DNA from: Sphingomonadaceae bacterium
GTDB lineage: Bacteria; Chloroflexota; UBA6077
Reading direction: 5' to 3'
NCBI GenBank assembly: GCA_050261575.1
Contig: JBLNDL010000058.1
Coordinates: 47,784-67,783, forward strand
Length of the DNA stretch: 20,000 nucleotides
Part shown: in pieces, positions 9,416 to 20,000 of the stretch
Numbering within the stretch: the first letter of the stretch is position 1
Layout: each line of letters begins with the position of its first letter
Made by a program: the position numbers and the translations under genes
Notes under the pieces: model-generated
What the model saw: only the letters and a program-made list of their open reading frames with translations
The model's database searches: none
Told to the model about the DNA's origin: nothing

Positions 9416-11590
9416 ATGCACTACGCACACTCCCGCAACGATCGAGGCGAAAGGCAGGACCTCCTCACCCACCTGCGCAACGTCGCCCAGATGGCGTCCT
9501 CCTTTGCCGCTGGCTTCGGCGCCTCAGAAGCCGGCTACTACCTCGGACTATGGCACGACGCCGGCAAGTTCTCCCCCGCGTTTCAGCGCTACCTCCTCGA
9601 CACCGAGACGCCCGCCGCGCGCCGGCCACGCGGCCCGGACCACAAGGCCGCCGGCTCCGAGATCGCGACCCGCTACCTCTGGCTCCTGGCCATGGCCATC
9701 CAGGCCCACCACGGCGGCCTCAGATCCCCGGAGGAGTTCCGTACCTGGCTATCGGAGCGGAAGGCCAAGGGCAGCCATGCCGAGGCTCTCGACATCGCCC
9801 GACACGCGATGCCGGACCTCCTTCCCTCGGCCCCCCTTCCGGTTCCGACGCACGCCGTCCGGGATCCCATCGCGACCGAGTTCCTGCTGCGGATGCTCTT
9901 CTCCGCCCTGGTCGACGCCGACTTCGTCGACACCGAACGACACATGCGTCCGGACCGGGCAGGGTTGCGTGGCCCCTCAGCCACCATGGCGGAGCTGTGG
10001 GAGCGGTTTCGCCGATTCCACGAGACGCTCCACACCGGTGACGACGGCCCCGTCGCTCGAGTCCGCCGCATCGTCTACGAGGCATGCCTCGCCGCCGCCG
10101 ACCGTCCGCCAGGGCTCTTCCGGCTCACGGTCCCGACCGGAGGGGGAAAGACCCTGTCCGGGATGGCGTTCGCCCTCCGCCACGCGCTGCGGCACGGCCA
10201 CCGTCGGGTGATCGTGGCAGTCCCCTTCATCAGCATCACCGAGCAGACTGCCGACGTCTACCGCGAGGTCTTCGAGTCCGCCCCAACCGTCGGCCCAGTC
10301 GTCCTCGAACACCACAGCGGCGCCTCCAACCTCGCTCCAGATAGCGAGGACTTCGATCCCGCCTACCTGTGGCGTCGCCTGGCCGCCGAGAACTGGGACG
10401 CCCCCATCGTCGTCACCACCACGGTCCAGTTGTTCGAGAGCCTGTTCGCCTCCAGCCCTTCCGGCTGCCGCAAGCTGCACCGGCTGGCCGGCAGCGTCCT
10501 GATCCTCGACGAAGCCCAGGTGCTCCCGCCCCACCTCCTGACGCCGATCCTGGACGCGCTGCGCCAGTTGTGCAGCCACTACGGAACGACAGTGGTGCTC
10601 TCCACCGCCACCCAGCCCGCCTTCGAGTCGATCCAGCCATTCCGTGACCTGGACGCCACCGAGATCGTGCCGGACCCGGCCAGGCTCTTCCGCGAACTCA
10701 GCCGTGTGACCTACGAGTGGAGGACAGACCCGCCCTTGGCTTGGGAGGAGGTCGCCTCCCTGATGCGCGATCAGGCCCACGCCCTCGCCGTGGTCAACAC
10801 CAGGGGCAACGCCATGGATCTCCTGGACTCCCTGGGAGACCCGGAGGCGCTACACCTATCCACACAGTTGTGCGGCGCGCACCGCAGACTGGTGATCGCG
10901 GAGGTCCGACGCCGACTGCGCGAGGGCGAGCCATGCAGGTTGGTCTCAACTCAGGTGGTGGAGGCCGGGGTGGACCTGGACTTCCCACTGGTGCTGCGAG
11001 CCCTGGGCCCGCTGGACGGCATCATTCAGGCCGCCGGCCGATGTAATCGAGAGGGACGGCTCCACAGGGGCCGGGTCGTAGTCTTCGAGCCGAGGGACGG
11101 TTCTGCCCCGAAAGGCAGCTACCTCACCGGCATCGGCGTCACCCGCGCCCTCCTGGGGGCCGGCCGCGTCGATCCAGACGACCCCGACACGGCGCGCCGC
11201 TACTTTGGCCGCCTGTTCGAGCTCCAGGAGACCGACAGAGAGGGCATCCAGCGGCTCAGGTCCAGCCTCAACTACCCCGAGGTCTCGCGCCGCTTTCGGA
11301 TGATCGACGAGCCCACGGAGAGCGTGGTCGTGCCCTTCGGGCCGGAGGAGGATCAGAGGAAGGTCGCACAGATGCTCGACGGGCTGAGAGAGGGCAACGC
11401 CGATGCTCGCGATCTGATACGGCGATTCCAGCCCTACCTGGTGTCCATCCGAACGCGGGAGGCCGACACGTACCGGCGCCGCGGGCTTATCGACCCCGTG
11501 CTGCCCGGCCTCGGCCGATGGCTGGGAGCCTACGACCCGGTCAGAGGGCTGGTCGGCGAGGGGCTCGATCCCGGCAGCTTCGTGATCTAA
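9416..11590 (+). CDS. cas3: CRISPR-associated HD nuclease/helicase Cas3 (type I-C)
   Basis: HD domain: YAHS, HL..VA, GLWHDAGK, AHHGGL, SALVDAD..DTE. SF2 helicase: VPTGGGKT, VLEHHS, ENWDAPIVVTTTVQ, DEAQ, STATQP, QAAGRCNREG. Confidence 0.97.
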   Translation: MHYAHSRNDRGERQDLLTHLRNVAQMASSFAAGFGASEAGYYLGLWHDAGKFSPAFQRYLLDTETPAARRPRGPDHKAAGSEIATRYLWLLAMAIQAHHGGLRSPEEFRTWLSERKAKGSHAEALDIARHAMPDLLPSAPLPVPTHAVRDPIATEFLLRMLFSALVDADFVDTERHMRPDRAGLRGPSATMAELWERFRRFHETLHTGDDGPVARVRRIVYEACLAAADRPPGLFRLTVPTGGGKTLSGMAFALRHALRHGHRRVIVAVPFISITEQTADVYREVFESAPTVGPVVLEHHSGASNLAPDSEDFDPAYLWRRLAAENWDAPIVVTTTVQLFESLFASSPSGCRKLHRLAGSVLILDEAQVLPPHLLTPILDALRQLCSHYGTTVVLSTATQPAFESIQPFRDLDATEIVPDPARLFRELSRVTYEWRTDPPLAWEEVASLMRDQAHALAVVNTRGNAMDLLDSLGDPEALHLSTQLCGAHRRLVIAEVRRRLREGEPCRLVSTQVVEAGVDLDFPLVLRALGPLDGIIQAAGRCNREGRLHRGRVVVFEPRDGSAPKGSYLTGIGVTRALLGAGRVDPDDPDTARRYFGRLFELQETDREGIQRLRSSLNYPEVSRRFRMIDEPTESVVVPFGPEEDQRKVAQMLDGLREGNADARDLIRRFQPYLVSIRTREADTYRRRGLIDPVLPGLGRWLGAYDPVRGLVGEGLDPGSFVI

Positions 11591-11619: not shown

Positions 11620-12264
11620 ATGAACGCGCGACACCCACCGGTCACCGTCCGAGTGTGGGGAGACTTCGCCTGCTTTACACGGCCGGAGATGAAGGTCGAG
11701 CGGGTAACCTACCCCACCATGACCCCATCCGCGGCACGAGGGATCCTGGAAGCGATCTTCTGGAAGCCGGAGTTCACCTGGAGGGTGGAGGAGATCTGGG
11801 TCCTCAAACCGATCCGCTACTTCTCCATCCTGCGGAACGAGGTGAACGGCCGCGCGAGCGAGCGCGCGGCCGCCTCGTGGGCCAAGGTGGGCGGTGGCTA
11901 CGTGGCCGAAGAGGACCGCGCCCAGCGCCACACCCTCGCTCTTCGGGACGTGGACTATCTCATATCGGCTCAACTCGAGGTGAAGCCCCACGTAGGGGAG
12001 GACCCCGCGAAGTTTCGCGACCAGTTCCGGAGGAGGGTTCGGAGCGGCCGCTGCTTCACCACCCCCTACCTGGGGTGCAGGGAGTTCTCGGCGAGCTTCG
12101 GCGAGCCGGCCGGATACGAGCAACCGATCGACCTCACCGAGGAGTTGGGGCCGATGCTGCTGGACCTGGACTACGACCCCGATGGCTCGGGTCGCGGCGC
12201 TCCGCGTTTCTTCGACGCCCGGTTGGAACACGGAGTCCTGCGGGTCCCGGCGCGGGCGGATTAG
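11620..12264 (+). CDS. cas5c: Type I-C Cas5c (Cas5d), crRNA-processing Cascade subunit
   Basis: AGGAGG RBS; VWGDFACFTRPEMKVERVTY..MTPSAARGILEAIFWKP, ILRNEV, PYLGCREF. Confidence 0.97.
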   Translation: MNARHPPVTVRVWGDFACFTRPEMKVERVTYPTMTPSAARGILEAIFWKPEFTWRVEEIWVLKPIRYFSILRNEVNGRASERAAASWAKVGGGYVAEEDRAQRHTLALRDVDYLISAQLEVKPHVGEDPAKFRDQFRRRVRSGRCFTTPYLGCREFSASFGEPAGYEQPIDLTEELGPMLLDLDYDPDGSGRGAPRFFDARLEHGVLRVPARAD

Positions 12265-12273
12265 GAGGAACCC

Positions 12274-14040
12274 ATGCTGCTTCAACGGCTGGCCGAGTAC
12301 GCTGGCCGGCTGGACCTACCGCCAACTCTCTACAGCGAGACCGCGGTCCGTTACATCCTCGAGTTAGATGGCTCGGGCCGGCTGCTCTCCCCCGAGCCCG
12401 TGGACACGGCCGACCCATCCAACCCCAGGACCCGTCGCGGCTTGCGCCGGCCAATGCCCCAGGTGCAGCGCTCGTCAGGCATCAAGCCGCTGCTTCTGGC
12501 CGACAACGCCGAGTATACCCTGGGCCTTCCCAAGCAGGACTCGAAGCCGGACCGCGTCGCCGCCTGCCACCAAGCCTACCTGGATCTGCTACGCAGGTGC
12601 GCCCAAGCCACCCGGGAGCCCGCCGTCGAGGCGGTGCTGCACTTCCTGGAGGGCGAGCCCCTCCCCCAATTGAGGCTCCCCCTCGATTTCGATTCCGGGG
12701 CCATACTCACCTTCCGGGTAGACGGCACGCTGCCCGTGGATTTGCCTGCGGTCCAGGCCTTTTGGGCCGCGGTAAACGACCCCGAGTCCGATCAGAGCCG
12801 GCCTGCGCGGGTGATGCAATGCATCGTCTGCGGAAAGGATCGCCCGGTTCTGGAACGGCTCCAGGGGAAGATCAAAGGCGTGCCGGGCGGGCAAACCGCT
12901 GGCACATCCCTCATCTCCGCCAACGCCGAGGCCTTCGAGTCGTACGGGCTCACGGCGTCTCTCGTGGCCCCCACCTGCGCCGAGTGCGGCGAACGCTTCA
13001 CCAAGGCGGCCAACGCGCTGCTGGCCGATCGTTCGAGCCGCTTCGACCTCGGCGGCGTGGCCTTCATCTACTGGACGAGGAACCGGGTCGACTTCTCTCT
13101 GTGGGACTACTTGACCGACCCCAAACCGGAGCAGGTCGGGCAGTTGCTCGGCTCAGTGCTGTCCGGACACCGCGGCACGGAGCTGGAAGCGACCGCCTTC
13201 TACGCCACAGCCCTCTCGGGCAGCGGCGGCAGGGCGGTGGTCCGCGACTGGATCGACACCACCGTGGGGGAGGTGCAGCGCCACCTGGCCACGTGGTTCC
13301 ACCGCCAGGCCATCGTGGGGGCCTACGGCGAGGATCCCCGCCCCTTCGGGCTCTGCCCACTCGCCCTGGCAACCGTACGGGACTCGAAGGACCTGGTACC
13401 GCGAACTCCACGCGCCCTGCTGCGCTCCGCCCTCACAGGCGCCCCGCTGCCTATCGACCTCCTCTTCGAAGCGGTGAGGCGAAACCGAGCCGAGCAGGAG
13501 GTCACTCGACCCCGCGCCGCCCTGATAAAGCTGGTGCTATCGAGCCGGCACCAGGCCAACGAGGAGGATGCCATGGTTCAACTCGATGCCCAAAACCCCA
13601 GTCCGGCCTATCGATGTGGACGGCTACTCGCAGTGCTGGAGGAGGTCCAGCGGCTCGCGGTCCCAGGCGCCAAGGCCACGATCGTCGACCGCTTCTTCGG
13701 GACCGCGTCGACGGCTCCGTCCTCGGTCTTCGGGCGCCTCCTGCGCGGCGCTCAGCCCCACCTAGCGAAGTTGGAGCGGGACCGCCCAGGCGCCTACCGC
13801 GTTCTCCAGACCCGGCTGGAGGAGATCCAGGCCGGACTCGCAGGCTTCCCCAAGACACTCACGTTGGAGGAGCAGGGCCTCTTCGCGCTGGGCTACTACC
13901 ATCAGCGCGCTTGGGACCGCAAGATCGCCATGGAGAGGGCCGAGCAGCGCCGGGCCGGCCGGCCCCACTCCGGCGACACCCTTGCGGAGACGCTTCTGAA
14001 CGAGCAGCTCTCGGACAACACAGTTGTGGAGGAGGACTGA
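12274..14040 (+). CDS. cas8c: Type I-C Cas8c (Csd1) large subunit
   Basis: MLLQRL.EY start, RSSGIKP.LL.DNAEY.LG, CIVCG...IKGV...LISAN.EAFESYG...CAEC, AYRCGRLLAVLE, FALGYYHQ; lies between cas5 and cas7. Confidence 0.96.
   Translation: MLLQRLAEYAGRLDLPPTLYSETAVRYILELDGSGRLLSPEPVDTADPSNPRTRRGLRRPMPQVQRSSGIKPLLLADNAEYTLGLPKQDSKPDRVAACHQAYLDLLRRCAQATREPAVEAVLHFLEGEPLPQLRLPLDFDSGAILTFRVDGTLPVDLPAVQAFWAAVNDPESDQSRPARVMQCIVCGKDRPVLERLQGKIKGVPGGQTAGTSLISANAEAFESYGLTASLVAPTCAECGERFTKAANALLADRSSRFDLGGVAFIYWTRNRVDFSLWDYLTDPKPEQVGQLLGSVLSGHRGTELEATAFYATALSGSGGRAVVRDWIDTTVGEVQRHLATWFHRQAIVGAYGEDPRPFGLCPLALATVRDSKDLVPRTPRALLRSALTGAPLPIDLLFEAVRRNRAEQEVTRPRAALIKLVLSSRHQANEEDAMVQLDAQNPSPAYRCGRLLAVLEEVQRLAVPGAKATIVDRFFGTASTAPSSVFGRLLRGAQPHLAKLERDRPGAYRVLQTRLEEIQAGLAGFPKTLTLEEQGLFALGYYHQRAWDRKIAMERAEQRRAGRPHSGDTLAETLLNEQLSDNTVVEED
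13573..14040 (+). CDS. cas11c: Cas11c small subunit by internal in-frame translation within cas8c (155 aa)
   Basis: GAGGAGG at 13561-13567 precedes the in-frame ATG 13573 (MVQLDAQNPSPAYRCGRLLAVLE), at the start of the C-terminal helical domain. Confidence 0.8.
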   Translation: MVQLDAQNPSPAYRCGRLLAVLEEVQRLAVPGAKATIVDRFFGTASTAPSSVFGRLLRGAQPHLAKLERDRPGAYRVLQTRLEEIQAGLAGFPKTLTLEEQGLFALGYYHQRAWDRKIAMERAEQRRAGRPHSGDTLAETLLNEQLSDNTVVEED

Positions 14041-14041
14041 G

Positions 14042-14956
14042 ATGGCCAGCACCCCTTACATCGACGTGACTCGGCGCCAGGACTTCGTGCTGCTATTCGA
14101 CGTGGCCGATGGCAACCCCAACGGCGACCCCGACGCGGGCAACCTTCCACGGGTCGATCCCGAGACCATGCAGGGACTGGTCACCGACGTGGCCATCAAG
14201 CGGAAGGTGCGGGACTGGGTGGACCTCGCCAGAGGGCAGGAGAGCCGGTACAAGATCTACGTTCAGAGCGGGTCGGCCCTGATCACCAAGCACAAGCGAG
14301 CCTACGAGGAGTTGGGCATCACCTCTACCGGAGCCAAGCAGGCCCGGGACGACGTGAACAGAGCCAGGGGCTGGATGTGCGCCAACTTCTACGACATTCG
14401 GATGTTCGGCGCCGTGATGGGCGTCAGCGTCAACTGCGGCCAGGTGCGGGGTCCCGTGCAAATGACCTTCGCCCGATCGTTGGATCCCATCGTTCCCCTG
14501 GACCTCTCCATCACCAGGGTGGCCGTGACTCGGGAGGAGGACACGGCGATCGCGGTGGCCGAGGACGGCGGATCCGCGGGCGGGGGCAAGCAGACGGAGA
14601 TGGGACGCAAGGCCCTGGTGCCCTACGGACTCTACCGGGCCCACGGTTTCTTCAACCCACACCTCGCCAGACAGACGGGCGCCACGGACGAGGACCTGGA
14701 GCTGTTCTGGGAGGCCCTGCAGAGGATGTGGGAGGTGGACCGGTCCTCCTCCAGAGGGATGATGGCGTGCCGCGGGCTGTACGTCTTCACCCACGACAGC
14801 CCCCTGGGGAACGCTCCCGCACACCGGCTCTTCGAGCGCATCCGCGTCTTCCGGAGACCGGAGGTCTCTGCACCACGCTCCTTCCAGGACTACGAGGTTG
14901 AGATCCGCGACTCCGACCTGCCGGAGGGGATCACCCTCGCGAGGCTGGAGGGGTAG
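14042..14956 (+). CDS. cas7c: Type I-C Cas7c (Csd2) backbone subunit
   Basis: DFVLLFDV..GNPNGDPDAGNLPR.D, TDVAIKRKVR, FYDIRMFGAV, QVRGPVQ, MGRK..VPYGLY; GGAGGA RBS. Confidence 0.97.
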   Translation: MASTPYIDVTRRQDFVLLFDVADGNPNGDPDAGNLPRVDPETMQGLVTDVAIKRKVRDWVDLARGQESRYKIYVQSGSALITKHKRAYEELGITSTGAKQARDDVNRARGWMCANFYDIRMFGAVMGVSVNCGQVRGPVQMTFARSLDPIVPLDLSITRVAVTREEDTAIAVAEDGGSAGGGKQTEMGRKALVPYGLYRAHGFFNPHLARQTGATDEDLELFWEALQRMWEVDRSSSRGMMACRGLYVFTHDSPLGNAPAHRLFERIRVFRRPEVSAPRSFQDYEVEIRDSDLPEGITLARLEG

Positions 14957-14958
14957 CC

Positions 14959-15615
14959 GTGGAAGCGCCGGAGGATCCCCTGCTGGAGGGCGAGGACGAG
15001 ATCCTCATCTCGGCCATCGAGCACTACGCCTACTGCCCACGGCAGTGCGGGCTGATCCACCTGGAGGAGATCTTCGAGGAGAACGTCTTCACCGTACGAG
15101 GCCGCATCACCCACGAGCGGGTGGACGAGGGCATCGACACGACCCGACCCGGGCTGCGGGTGGCGCGTTCAATCCCCCTCTGGTCCGAACGGCTGGGGCT
15201 GTACGGCAAGGCGGACCTGGTGGAGTTCCGGCAGGAGGGACCGTACCCGGTGGAGTACAAGCCGGGACGCCGGCATAGGGATGCTCCGGACCTACAACTG
15301 TGCGCCCAGGCGTTGTGCCTCGAAGAGATGCTCGGGGTACCGGTACCCCGAGGAGCCATCTATTACGCGGGTCTCCACCGTCGGTACGAGGTGGAGTTCA
15401 CGCCTGAGCTGCGCGCGAGAACCCAGGAGGCCGTGGCGGGGGTGCGGCGGATGCTTCGCACGCCGCGCCTCCCCGACCCGGCCAACGACGAGCGCTGTCC
15501 CAACTGCTCGCTCGCCGATCCGTGCCTCCCGAGCGTGGTGGCGGACCGCTCCCGACTGCGTGGCCTGCAGGGAGCGCTGTTCCGCCCGCTCGATCTGGGA
15601 GAGTCCGATGCATGA
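14959..15615 (+). CDS. cas4: CRISPR-associated Cas4 nuclease
   Basis: ISAIEHYAYCPRQ, GKADLVE...PVEYK, QLCAQALCLEEM, CPNCSL...C (four Fe-S cysteines). Confidence 0.96.
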   Translation: MEAPEDPLLEGEDEILISAIEHYAYCPRQCGLIHLEEIFEENVFTVRGRITHERVDEGIDTTRPGLRVARSIPLWSERLGLYGKADLVEFRQEGPYPVEYKPGRRHRDAPDLQLCAQALCLEEMLGVPVPRGAIYYAGLHRRYEVEFTPELRARTQEAVAGVRRMLRTPRLPDPANDERCPNCSLADPCLPSVVADRSRLRGLQGALFRPLDLGESDA

Positions 15616-16639
15616 GCTACTGAACGTGCTGTACGTCCAGACCCAGGGAGCAGTCCTGCACCTGGACAACGACACCGTGCGCATCGAGATGGAGGGCGAG
15701 CCGGCACGCCGCCTCCCGCTCCTGCGGCTCAGCGCGATCGTGCTGTTCGGGCGGGTCACCGTCACCCCCTTCCTGATCCAGCGCTGCGCGGAGGACGGCC
15801 GCACCGTGGTGTGGCTCGACCACAGAGGCCGCTTCAAGGGCCGGCTGGAGGGCCAGACACGCGGCAACGTCCTGCTCCGCCGGGCCCAGCATCTGGCGCT
15901 GTCGGACGCCGGCCACACCCTCCGGATCTCCCGCCAAATCGTGGCGGCGAAGATCCAGAACAGCCGCCAGGTGCTGCTCAGGGCCGCGCGGGAATGCGCG
16001 GGGTATCCCGACGCGAACCCCCTGCGGCAGACGGCCGAGCAGATGGCGTCCATCCTGGAGCGCCTGCGGCAAGGCCGGGACCTTGACGCGGTGCGGGGGG
16101 ACGAAGGCGAGGCCGCGCGTGCCTACTTCGGGGTGTTCGGCTACATGGTACGGAGCGACCGGGAGGTGTTCGAGCCCGCGGGTCGAACCCGGAGGCCGCC
16201 TCGGGACCGAATGAACGCGCTGCTCTCCTTTCTCTACACCCTTCTCAGGCACGAGTGCGTCTCCGCTTTGGAGGGCGTGGGGCTGGACCCCCAGGTGGGA
16301 TACCTCCACGCCCTCCGGCCGGGCAGGCCGGCGTTGGCGCTGGATCTGATGGAGGAACTGCGTCCGGTGGTGGCCGACAGGCTGGCGCTGACCCTGGTGA
16401 ACCGCAGGCAACTGAAGCCGGAGCACTTCGAGGAAAAGCCCGGGGGCGCGGTGCTCCTGAACGAGGAGGGACGGCGGAACCTGATAGTGGCGTACGAGCA
16501 GAGGAAGGCGACGGAGATCCAGCATCGTGTCCTGGATCGGCGGATCCCCTTGGGGCTGGTGCCGCACCTTCAGGCCCGGCTGCTGGCGCGGCACCTGAGG
16601 GGAGACCTGAAGGAGTACCCACCGTTCCTTTACCGGTGA
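15608..16639 (+). CDS. cas1: Type I-C Cas1 integrase
   Basis: LLNVLYVQTQG, GNVLLRRAQ, RGDEGEAARAYF, RRPPRD.MNALLSFLY, GLDPQVGYLH, LALDLMEELR, YPPF. Confidence 0.97.
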   Translation: MHELLNVLYVQTQGAVLHLDNDTVRIEMEGEPARRLPLLRLSAIVLFGRVTVTPFLIQRCAEDGRTVVWLDHRGRFKGRLEGQTRGNVLLRRAQHLALSDAGHTLRISRQIVAAKIQNSRQVLLRAARECAGYPDANPLRQTAEQMASILERLRQGRDLDAVRGDEGEAARAYFGVFGYMVRSDREVFEPAGRTRRPPRDRMNALLSFLYTLLRHECVSALEGVGLDPQVGYLHALRPGRPALALDLMEELRPVVADRLALTLVNRRQLKPEHFEEKPGGAVLLNEEGRRNLIVAYEQRKATEIQHRVLDRRIPLGLVPHLQARLLARHLRGDLKEYPPFLYR

Positions 16640-16692
16640 TCCAGCACGGGCGGGATGTCCGCCGTCCGGACTGGGAGCAGAGGAGGTGAGCC

Positions 16693-16983
16693 ATCGAGGT
16701 ACTGATCAGCTACGACGTGGCCACCGACACGGCCGAGGGCCGGAAGCGGCTTCGGCGCGTGGCGAAGCTGTGCGAGGCCCACGGGCAGCGGGTGCAGAAG
16801 TCGGTCTTCGAGTGCATCTTGACCGCGGCGCAACTGGAGGAGTTGAAGCACAGGCTGAGGAAAGCGATCGAAGAGAAGGAGGACAGCCTCCGGATCTACC
16901 GCCTACTGGAGCCCAGGGAGCGGCACCTGCACGCCATGGGTCGCAGCGTTCCGCTGGATCTACACGATCCGCTGGTGGTATGA
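16693..16983 (+). CDS. cas2: Cas2 (96 codons if initiated at ATC 16693)
   Basis: EVLISYDVATDT.EG.KRLRRVAK.C...GQRVQKSVFEC...DSLRIY.L. AGGAGG at 16681-16686 and an in-frame TGA at 16687-16689 leave ATC 16693 as the only plausible full-length start. Confidence 0.93.
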   Translation: MEVLISYDVATDTAEGRKRLRRVAKLCEAHGQRVQKSVFECILTAAQLEELKHRLRKAIEEKEDSLRIYRLLEPRERHLHAMGRSVPLDLHDPLVV

Positions 16984-17190
16984 CCGCTGCGCGGACCTCC
17001 GGCTGACACGAGGTGAGCGTGAGGTCCGCGCAGATCGCGGCCGCTTTCGGGAGACAGAGCGGCCCCCGGGAGGGCAGTCAACGCGCCTCTGGCGATGGAA
17101 TCTGGGCGAATCGGGGCGAGAAGACGTTCCAGGCCGCTCTCCCGAGGCGATTCGGGCGTGGAATGTGCCCTTTTGGCGCCTTCGGGTGCC
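16984..17190 (+). promoter_or_regulatory. CRISPR leader (207 bp)
   Basis: Non-coding region between cas2 and repeat 1. Perfect 13-bp inverted repeat CTGCGCGGACCTC (16987-16999) / GAGGTCCGCGCAG (17021-17033). Confidence 0.85.
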
Positions 17191-20000
17191 GTCGCACCCT
17201 GTCGTCGCACAGGGTGAGGATTGAAACAGCCACGGCCCGCACCGACTCCGGCGCCAGCTCGACGGTCGCACCCTGTCGTCGCACAGGGTGAGGATTGAAA
17301 CTCGATCCCCACAGCAGACAGGATATTGGAGGACGCGTCGCACCCTGTCGTCGCACAGGGTGAGGATTGAAACATAATAGAAACGAGGTATTGACGAGGT
17401 CTCGTTCATGTCGCACCCTGTCGTCGCACAGGGTGAGGATTGAAACATCGAGATGCCCGACGAGGGCATCGTAATAATAGCGGTCGCACCCTGTCGTCGC
17501 ACAGGGTGAGGATTGAAACGGCGCAGCAGAGTGGCCGCGGAGTGCCGCAGGTCGTGGTCGCACCCTGTCGTCGCACAGGGTGAGGATTGAAACATTAGAC
17601 CGTTCAGGCCCAACTATGGTGACGGGAGCGGTCGCACCCTGTCGTCGCACAGGGTGAGGATTGAAACCGGTAGCGCCCGCCGCAGACATGGCACAGCAGG
17701 GCGTCGCACCCTGTCGTCGCACAGGGTGAGGATTGAAACCCGGCATCCCATGTTGCTCTGACGGCATAATAGCTCGTCGCACCCTGTCGTCGCACAGGGT
17801 GAGGATTGAAACCTCTTAGGAACATCGGGCAAAGCGCCACACTCGCTGCGTCGCACCCTGTCGTCGCACAGGGTGAGGATTGAAACGGGTCCAGTGGTGG
17901 CAGCCAGTCAATGCCACCGGCAAGTCGCACCCTGTCGTCGCACAGGGTGAGGATTGAAACCTGTTGTTGCATCGAAGAAACTGCCGAGAGTGTTGGGTCG
18001 CACCCTGTCGTCGCACAGGGTGAGGATTGAAACCTCCACCCTCCCGCCCTGGTGGTCGTCACTGCCGGGCGTCGCACCCTGTCGTCGCACAGGGTGAGGA
18101 TTGAAACATGTCCCCCCCCCGTGGCCTTATTGATGATGCGAGTGTCGCACCCTGTCGTCGCACAGGGTGAGGATTGAAACTTCGAGGCCGCGGCCTGGCG
18201 CGAACGGCGTGAGCGAGGTCGCACCCTGTCGTCGCACAGGGTGAGGATTGAAACCGCGAGTCGATCGGGCAGGCGATGGGCCCGGCGATGGTCGCACCCT
18301 GTCGTCGCACAGGGTGAGGATTGAAACTCGACGGTCGGCGGCGCGGTGGGCCACATGATGCCGGGTCGCACCCTGTCGTCGCACAGGGTGAGGATTGAAA
18401 CGAGGGGGAGCCCGTCGTTGGCCTGCCGCCTCGCAATGTCGCACCCTGTCGTCGCACAGGGTGAGGATTGAAACCTCTCCTCTCCTGAGGGTCCGTCCCG
18501 ACGATGGGGAGGTCGCACCCTGTCGTCGCACAGGGTGAGGATTGAAACCCGAAACAGCCATGCGGCTTGGCCCGACATGGGGCCGTCGCACCCTGTCGTC
18601 GCACAGGGTGAGGATTGAAACGCTCGATGGCCAGCAGGCAGCTATCGCCGGTCGCTGTCGCACCCTGTCGTCGCACAGGGTGAGGATTGAAACATCCGGC
18701 AGACATAGCCACTGCCGTAGACGGCCCCGTCGCACCCTGTCGTCGCACAGGGTGAGGATTGAAACGCGTCCTGGCAGTGGAGCAGGGGGTCCGGGTGGGC
18801 GAGTCGCACCCTGTCGTCGCACAGGGTGAGGATTGAAACCGCCGAGAGCGCAACATCCTGCGCTCCCTTGAGGGGGTCGCACCCTGTCGTCGCACAGGGT
18901 GAGGATTGAAACCACCCGGTGTCTCGCCCGTCTGCTATACAGATGGCGGTCGTCGCACCCTGTCGTCGCACAGGGTGAGGATTGAAACTCGGTGAAATCG
19001 GCCTTGATCTCGGTGGCCGCGATCCGTCGCACCCTGTCGTCGCACAGGGTGAGGATTGAAACACAGCTGAATAGGGCGGGATAGTTGGCAGGCGACCCGT
19101 CGCACCCTGTCGTCGCACAGGGTGAGGATTGAAACGGGCTAAACGACTCATGGGAGACGTACTACCAGTGCGTCGCACCCTGTCGTCGCACAGGGTGAGG
19201 ATTGAAACTTGATACCTGCCTGGGCCATGAGAGCAAGAGCTGTGTCGCACCCTGTCGTCGCACAGGGTGAGGATTGAAACCCTTGCCCATCCTGCTAGCC
19301 GCCTGTCGTAAAGGTCAGTCGCACCCTGTCGTCGCACAGGGTGAGGATTGAAACATCACAAGCCGCCAGGCCGTCGAGGTGTCTACACCCAGTCGCACCC
19401 TGTCGTCGCACAGGGTGAGGATTGAAACCTCGGGCATGGGGCTCCTCATGGCCTGGAACGGGCGGGGGTCGCACCCTGTCGTCGCACAGGGTGAGGATTG
19501 AAACTTCGGCCTGGCCACCATGCCGCCGCTCAACACGAGGTCGCACCCTGTCGTCGCACAGGGTGAGGATTGAAACCAGCAGGCCGTCTCGGGCGTGCGC
19601 TACGCGCTGGTCGCACCCTGTCGTCGCACAGGGTGAGGATTGAAACTGGTGCCGCCGACCATGCCGGTACAGGGCGGCGAGTCGCACCCTGTCGTCGCAC
19701 AGGGTGAGGATTGAAACCAGTGCTGCAAGCCGCTCCCGCACCAGCATGGAACGTCGCACCCTGTCGTCGCACAGGGTGAGGATTGAAACGTGGGCGCGGC
19801 CAAAATCATCGAGATGCCCGACGAGGGTCGCACCCTGTCGTCGCACAGGGTGAGGATTGAAACACCAATACGCTCTCGATGTCCGTCATGTTGCCATCAG
19901 TCGCACCCTGTCGTCGCACAGGGTGAGGATTGAAACAGAAGCCGGGGGAGAATGTCGTACCCATCAATCCCGTGTCGCACCCTGTCGTCGCACAGGGTGA
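17191..20000 (+). CRISPR. Type I-C CRISPR array; repeat GTCGCACCCTGTCGTCGCACAGGGTGAGGATTGAAAC (37 bp); 38 full repeats + 1 truncated, 38 spacers of 33-39 bp; continues beyond the window
   Basis: Repeats read directly from 17191 to 19974 with no variants noticed. 8-bp stem CACCCTGT/ACAGGGTG. The 3' ATTGAAAC handle and leader position give + orientation. Confidence 0.99.

Follow-up and report, generated by a model that had tools for sequence, protein, structure and literature searches.

A type I-C CRISPR-Cas locus in which the adaptation gene cas2 has ATC in the place where related genes have ATG, GTG or TTG raises the question of where translation of cas2 begins and how much Cas2 is made. We addressed this question in a stretch of 20,000 nucleotides (referred to from here on as the window), which is the final 20 kb of contig C58 in a metagenome-assembled genome of 3.7 Mb (65.4% G+C, 103 contigs). 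The window contains a complete type I-C operon, in the order cas3-cas5-cas8c-cas7-cas4-cas1-cas2-array (Table 1). The six other cas genes have canonical start codons (ATG or GTG) behind GGAGG-type sites, and all of them are intact.

Table 1. Features of the type I-C operon and of the cas2 start region (positions in the window)
Feature	Position	Strand	Description
cas3 (HD nuclease + helicase)	9416..11590	+	ATG start; NCBIfam cas3_HD and cas3_core matches
cas5c	11620..12264	+	ATG start after AAGGAGG; TIGR01876, E 4.7e-45
cas8c/csd1	12274..14040	+	ATG start after AGGAGG; TIGR01863, E 1.1e-110
cas7c/csd2	14042..14956	+	ATG start after GGAGGAGG; TIGR02589, E 1.4e-101
cas4	14959..15615	+	GTG start; TIGR00372, E 8.2e-36
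cas1c	15608..16639	+	ATG start; C-terminus YPPFLYR, then TGA; TIGR03640, E 9.9e-148, 491.8 bits
Intergenic stem-loop, cas1 to cas2 ribosome-binding site	16640..16675	+	z -1.06 (16640-16700), not statistically distinctive
Shine-Dalgarno AGGAGGTGA	16681..16689	+	Final three bases are the in-frame TGA
ATC, proposed near-cognate cas2 start codon	16693..16695	+	6 nt after AGGAGG; aligned with the ATG/GTG/TTG of homologues
cas2, 96 codons + stop	16693..16983	+	TIGR01573, 68.1 bits; close homologues nearly all 96 aa
Second ATC	16705..16707	+	Start of the 92-aa NCBI-source protein P0122 (MSYDV...); 18 nt from the Shine-Dalgarno
GTG, first canonical start	16717..16719	+	Start of the 88-aa gene call P0002
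Strong hairpin directly after the cas2 stop	16984..17040	+	-38.7 kcal/mol, z -5.5
CRISPR array	17191..20000	+	37-nt repeat GTCGCACCCTGTCGTCGCACAGGGTGAGGATTGAAAC, 38-39 copies; reaches the window end, which is the contig end

The repeats of the array are identical to each other and end in ATTGAAAC; such a long uniform array says nothing decisive about current spacer acquisition. The hairpin that follows the cas2 stop codon has no clear U-tract, and the metagenome locus L078, described below, has an 11-bp stem of different sequence in the same place; the hairpin may serve as a signal for the end of the operon or for processing, placed ahead of the leader. A contig of 238 nt from a soil metatranscriptome (X7) matches positions 16857-17094 with no differences, a stretch that takes in the 3' part of cas2, the hairpin and some of the leader. 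It is compatible with transcription through the end of cas2 but is no proof of it or of initiation, and DNA carry-over could even be its source.

The cas2 frame has a Shine-Dalgarno sequence 6 nt ahead of ATC and no earlier start

Read in one frame, the start region consists of AGGAGG (16681-16686), TGA (16687-16689), GCC, ATC (16693-16695), GAG GTA CTG ATC AGC TAC GAC and GTG (16717). Between the TGA and this GTG, there is no ATG, GTG or TTG in frame, and the GTG, 8 codons downstream of the ATC, is the first of these codons to occur. The first-pass annotation, made from the window alone, had described a Shine-Dalgarno sequence 6 nt ahead of the ATC and an in-frame TGA that blocks any earlier start, and we confirmed this layout exactly. 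The in-frame TGA, formed by the last three bases of AGGAGGTGA, rules out any start further upstream, and because it is two codons upstream of the ATC, only GCC or ATC could be the first codon if the conserved EVLISYD is translated. The 9-mer occurs once in the 20-kb window, at cas2, against 0.23 occurrences expected by chance window-wide.

The 96 residues encoded from the ATC onward match the Cas2 family TIGR01573 well above its cut-off (68.1 bits compared with 24.5; E 6.2e-19), and PF09827 was found on all listed Cas2 homologues. The N-terminal Tyr-Asp strand of Cas2 is strand beta-1, which carries the metal-binding Asp. In the window, this strand is present only if the start is at 16693, in which case IEVLISYDV aligns with the MEVLVxYDV of homologues, and codons 2-8 keep the family consensus. 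The first-pass annotation had held that a start at GTG 16717 would remove strand beta-1 and the YD motif, and this is supported: the conserved N-terminal IEVLISYD would be lost.

Public gene calls for this cas2 disagree: an NCBI-source call gives 92 aa from ATC 16705 and a Prodigal-type call, seen on 4 Logan contigs, gives 88 aa from GTG 16717, and neither of the two retains the complete first strand. If translation began at another in-frame codon (CTG 16702, ATC 16705 or GTG 16717), the product would be a Cas2 with a shortened first strand, and P0122 and the Logan-called P0002 do begin at the latter two. However, these three codons lie 15, 18 and 30 nt, respectively, from the only Shine-Dalgarno sequence, compared with a range of 4-9 nt that predominates in this genome; the consensus kept at codons 2-8 would be unexpected of untranslated DNA; and the alignment with solved Cas2 chains starts at query residue 3. 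We consider a start at any of these codons quite unlikely.

Three other features of the region were considered and rejected. Neither the intergenic stem-loop at 16640-16675 (z -1.06) nor a pairing of the Shine-Dalgarno sequence with codons 9-11 (z -2.3, not conserved in L078) was retained as a regulatory structure. Further, an insertion between cas1 and cas2 was rejected as the cause of the odd start: the gap between the two genes ranges from 2 to 210 nt among 41 loci, and the 53-nt gap of the window is matched by loci that have ATG.

Contigs from two studies carry the ATC

As the window comes from a metagenome-assembled genome and the difference from a canonical start is a single base, the true base at 16695 might be G. 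The first-pass annotation had allowed for such a sequencing error and had called for a check of this base. Two Logan contigs from two different studies cover it. The first (X1 record 7, depth 13.8), which may come from near the source sample, spans 16573-17185, reads ATC and differs from the window only by a C>T change at 16660. The second (X6 record 20, depth 2) spans 16639-16789 and reads ATC with zero differences. The base is therefore C in both of these studies, at the level of contigs, not raw reads, in which minor variants are invisible. A further study (P2, X5) has no contig across 16660-16729 and says nothing either way. The 88-aa call on 4 Logan contigs, and the Ile found at the start position in L078 and throughout its protein cluster (7 members, three sources), also speak against an error of sequencing or assembly. 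We regard such an error as very unlikely, indeed as close to refuted.

The ATC sits at the homologous start codon, which is canonical in other genomes

To read start codons in homologues, we used genome contigs with related cas2 loci, of which 63 out of 65 were examined (L073 and L077, which matched only partially, were dropped). Nine of the 63 encode distant Cas2 proteins with other N-terminal lengths, whose start a fixed offset misses. At the position aligned with the ATC, all of the remaining 54 alignable loci have a canonical start (ATG in 45, GTG in 8 and TTG in 1), and none has ATH. The picture was similar across 401 genomes sampled evenly from the phylum, where the 14 genomes with this Cas2 (threshold E <= 1e-25) start the gene with ATG (8), GTG (3), TTG (2) and, in the window, ATC (1). 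In about 110 of the 120 listed cluster representatives, YDV is preceded by exactly six residues (M-E-x-L-x-x), and nearly all have a length of 96 aa.

Solved type I-C Cas2 proteins (4es1, BH0342; the Cas1-Cas2 complexes of the 8d3l type; and 4qr0) are homologous to the window protein (E 3.6e-25 to 3.6e-24) and come from systems with the same operon order. The chains of 4qr0, 8d3l and 4es1 align from query residue 3 onward, and the N-termini are hence colinear. These solved proteins were compared as protein, and unlike the window, the Cas2 relatives with DNA in the genome sets read ATG, GTG or TTG at the start.

These counts agree with a start-loss lesion, in which ATG changed to ATC and left cas2 dead or with a crippled 88-aa product, so that the locus interferes with invaders but no longer acquires spacers: ATC is found in 0 of the 54 alignable loci and is the sole non-canonical codon among the 14 genomes of the phylum sample. 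Decay of adaptation genes does occur elsewhere. In L102 (G143:C1:102395-105420), the cas2 family sequence is lost after about residue 63 (EEEDQPADLPANG), an apparent frameshift and a probable example of a decaying cas2. We return to this explanation below, where the evidence against it is given.

Near-cognate starts in the genome of the window

The organism makes wide use of Shine-Dalgarno-led initiation: of some 2,740 crudely called genes, about half have GGAGG or AGGAGG near the chosen start, with a spacing peak at 5-8 nt. When 2,752 crude coding ORFs were screened for a Shine-Dalgarno sequence followed by ATC, a screen for which the cas2 frame itself is too short, there were 8 cases in frame compared with 40 in the two off frames. 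This indicates that ATC starts are no general habit of the genome, which fits a lesion in cas2. A search of the assembly for the 3' end of its own 16S rRNA, and with it the anti-Shine-Dalgarno sequence, found none.

Two other genes of this genome bear on near-cognate initiation. An AUH start on infC is the classic IF3-controlled design. In the infC gene here (G000:C78, about 190-210; L106:190-215), an in-frame TGA is followed by no ATG, GTG or TTG, and the most likely start is an ATA preceded by GAGGTG, which gives M-TKDLRVNEKIRVREVRLIG; AUH initiation would then operate in the organism of the window. Separately, a 115-codon gene (G000:C101:5041-5388, + strand), the N-terminus of which we take to resemble that of the ribosome silencing factor RsfS, lacks a canonical start ahead of its conserved residues; its apparent start is CTG, 9 nt downstream of GAGGAGG.

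In E. coli, according to the accessible text of the preprint by Hecht et al. (bioRxiv 10.1101/063800), initiation at AUC reaches ~1-2% of that at AUG (0.02-3% in other reporters), the AUC-initiated protein carries an N-terminal Met, and infC and pcnB are the only confirmed near-cognate cases. Near-cognate starts as weak as these would also agree with a start-loss lesion.

A sister locus shares the ATC design

The metagenome locus L078 reads GGAGG TGTAGC ATC GAA GTA CTC GTG GCA TAC GAC at the beginning of cas2; its cas1 and its 96-codon cas2 are intact, and its only Shine-Dalgarno sequence is the one 6 nt before the ATC. The corresponding protein cluster (P0037) draws its 7 members from three sources, and Ile occupies the start position in all of them. 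In a tree of the last 230 residues of Cas1, the window and L078 are sisters (UFBoot 98/SH-aLRT 94). This tree consists of 37 loci with DNA, and ATG-bearing loci could therefore still nest between the two; L014, L022, L033, L036, L087, L089 and L102 were excluded, as their frames were wrong or their pieces very long or very short. In the tree from the short Cas2 alignment, P0037 falls outside the clade of the window, in a position that has no support either way. The first-pass annotation had asked whether ATC, ATT or ATA is conserved at the cas2 5' ends of related loci, and the answer is divided: the sister locus has ATC, but the 54 alignable genome loci are canonical throughout.

The cas2 genes of the window and L078 are identical at 66 of 96 amino acids and 203 of 288 nucleotides, with dN 0.216 and dS 1.31 (NG86), which give an omega of ~0.16 at a dS near saturation. 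Within codons 2-8, the two differ by two synonymous changes, an I/V replacement and an S/A replacement. These values suggest purifying selection on cas2, and L078 keeps the design of a Shine-Dalgarno sequence, six nucleotides and ATC. We note that the cas2 frame of L078 continues open ahead of the ATC and contains a TTG 19 codons and an ATG 45 codons upstream of it, so L078 could in principle use another start. A 405-aa protein of the L078 lineage (P0127) is a Cas1-Cas2 read-through with an out-of-frame stretch in place of the Cas1 C-terminus; because cas1 is intact in L078 itself, P0127 reflects a frameshift or assembly error in that contig.

L078 also bears on how ribosomes would reach the ATC. 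An open frame at 16255-16689 of the window is in the same frame as cas2 and ends at the TGA 3 nt before the ATC, and this stop codon overlaps the Shine-Dalgarno sequence, an arrangement that would suit ribosomes arriving from upstream, by termination and reinitiation at the TGA or by a frameshift out of cas1, in place of free 30S binding. However, the frame overlaps cas1 out of phase and has no sign of translation, L078 has no such stop, and the cas1-cas2 gap, 53 nt in the window, varies from 2 to 210 nt among homologues. Delivery of upstream ribosomes to the ATC is thus decidedly improbable.

ATC or Ile is found at the old start position in other loci

Two further metagenome loci, L082 and L088, have ATC at the old start and, six codons upstream of it, a new ATG in the same frame that follows GAGGA (L082:1482-1502 and the same place in L088). 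The cas2 start therefore appears to have migrated in these loci, where the upstream ATG probably took over and added MPPPGR to Cas2. They form a separate lineage, and 0 of 200 bootstrap trees of Cas1 unite all four ATC loci. Two proteins, P0104 and P0147, also have Ile at the start position and carry spurious upstream extensions. Because a peptide containing IEVLVAYD served as the seed of the metagenome scan, the ATC loci that the scan returned (L078, L082 and L088) give no frequency.

PHLQARLLA occurs in the Cas1 C-terminus of all three ATC-bearing lineages (the window, L078, L082 and L088). Most of the other Cas1 loci compared have PHVQ, and five have PHIQ, PYVQ, PYIQ or PFIQ.

Short-called Cas2 proteins form a clade that includes the window

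The nearest relative of the window Cas2 is P0012. The nine best matches to P0012 (76-100% identity, including P0012 itself and P0002 of the window) are all gene calls of 88-93 aa, and the matches at 75% identity or less are all at least 96 aa long, except P0148 (a 71-aa fragment) and P0151 (92 aa). We built a Cas2 tree from 87 core columns and 48 rows, namely nine short calls, three forms with Ile at the start and 36 others chosen from the top matches of both searches. In this tree, the nine short-called rows, which are seven distinct sequences with 68-100% mutual identity, form one clade (support 96/84) with no 96-aa row inside it, and the window is sister to P0012 within the clade (97/86). 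A first Cas2 tree of 146 rows gave no resolution of relationships.

The clade is known from protein calls, and codon 1 was read in DNA for the window only. P0151, which corresponds to L016, is called at 92 aa although its codon 1 is GTG; a short call is thus an imperfect proxy for a non-canonical start. In P0013/P0021 and P0085, (V)TYDV is still encoded ahead of the shared Val, which indicates that coding of the first strand persists in the clade. Besides the window, no member of the clade was found by a protein search with P0012 of all 66 genomes of the class or by searches with P0134 of the 401-genome phylum sample and of viral contigs.

These observations and those on L078 count against the start-loss lesion set out above. 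The open reading frame, the N-terminal codons and the strong Shine-Dalgarno sequence of the window cas2 are all intact; the sister locus shares the design at an omega of ~0.16; the supported short-called clade, whose members are 68-100% identical to each other, points to long retention; and the other cas genes are intact next to 38-39 identical repeats. The simple recent ATG>ATC lesion that the first-pass annotation had offered as one option is disfavored by the same design under purifying selection in L078 together with the short-called clade, and we consider a lesion unlikely.

Discussion

Overall, we favor as the probable explanation that translation of cas2 is initiated at AUC 16693 under the direction of its Shine-Dalgarno sequence, that this start has been kept by selection and that little Cas2 is made. 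In the mechanism that we propose, the 9-nt Shine-Dalgarno sequence AGGAGGUGA, which ends 3 nt before the AUC and has its AGGAGG core 6 nt upstream, would place ribosomes at the AUC; the initiator tRNA would read this codon poorly, and the output of the 96-aa Cas2 would hence be a small fraction of that from AUG. In spite of its ATC, the cas2 gene of the window thus probably yields full-length Cas2, at a low rate. The weak-start state would be inherited and selected for in a lineage of type I-C loci and would not be a fresh mutation. We infer that initiation takes place at the AUC, with a low, IF3-sensitive output that would keep the Cas1-Cas2 integrase scarce. As the first-pass annotation had proposed, low Cas2 might in turn limit spacer acquisition or self-targeting.

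Near-cognate starts are already a known kind. In E. coli, infC (which encodes IF3) and pcnB have AUU where a canonical start is expected, and the likeness to the window cas2 lies in a near-cognate AUH codon led by a Shine-Dalgarno sequence. Initiation at these two starts is low and IF3-sensitive, properties that cas2 of the window is predicted to share. In contrast to the E. coli cases, the codon here is AUC where theirs is AUU, and the gene belongs to CRISPR adaptation; no feedback loop is known or implied for cas2, and the case is known from sequence alone. A second parallel is ebpA of Enterococcus faecalis, where, according to the accessible text of the report (PMC4447247), a rare ATT start attenuates pilus expression, so that a rare AUH codon throttles the amount of a non-housekeeping protein. 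The codon, the gene and the organism differ between the two, and the ebpA case is experimental. We found no report of a near-cognate start on cas2 in the full-text literature searched, which is limited in coverage.

More tentatively, the codon might act as a regulatory valve. In this type I-C lineage of uncultured soil bacteria, an AUC fixed on cas2 alone would be an IF3-sensitive valve: the integrase would stay scarce during normal growth, Cas2 and acquisition would rise when the proofreading of starts relaxes (e.g. in stress or infection), and the lineages of L082 and L088 would have escaped it by means of a new upstream ATG. We consider this extension possible but doubtful.

The findings have a consequence for surveys of CRISPR-Cas loci. 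Because gene finders cut the window Cas2 to 88 or 92 residues, surveys that score such a cas2 as truncated or degenerate misjudge loci of this kind, and the misjudgment extends to the short-called P0012, P0132-P0135, P0013/P0021 and P0085. Spacer acquisition is costly through self-targeting, and most of its known controls act on transcription. The gene that carries the odd codon in the window is the one adaptation gene that encodes a structural subunit of the integrase, and the codon appears to have been retained there by the lineage. If it is conserved, a weak cas2 start would be a simple translational control of adaptation.
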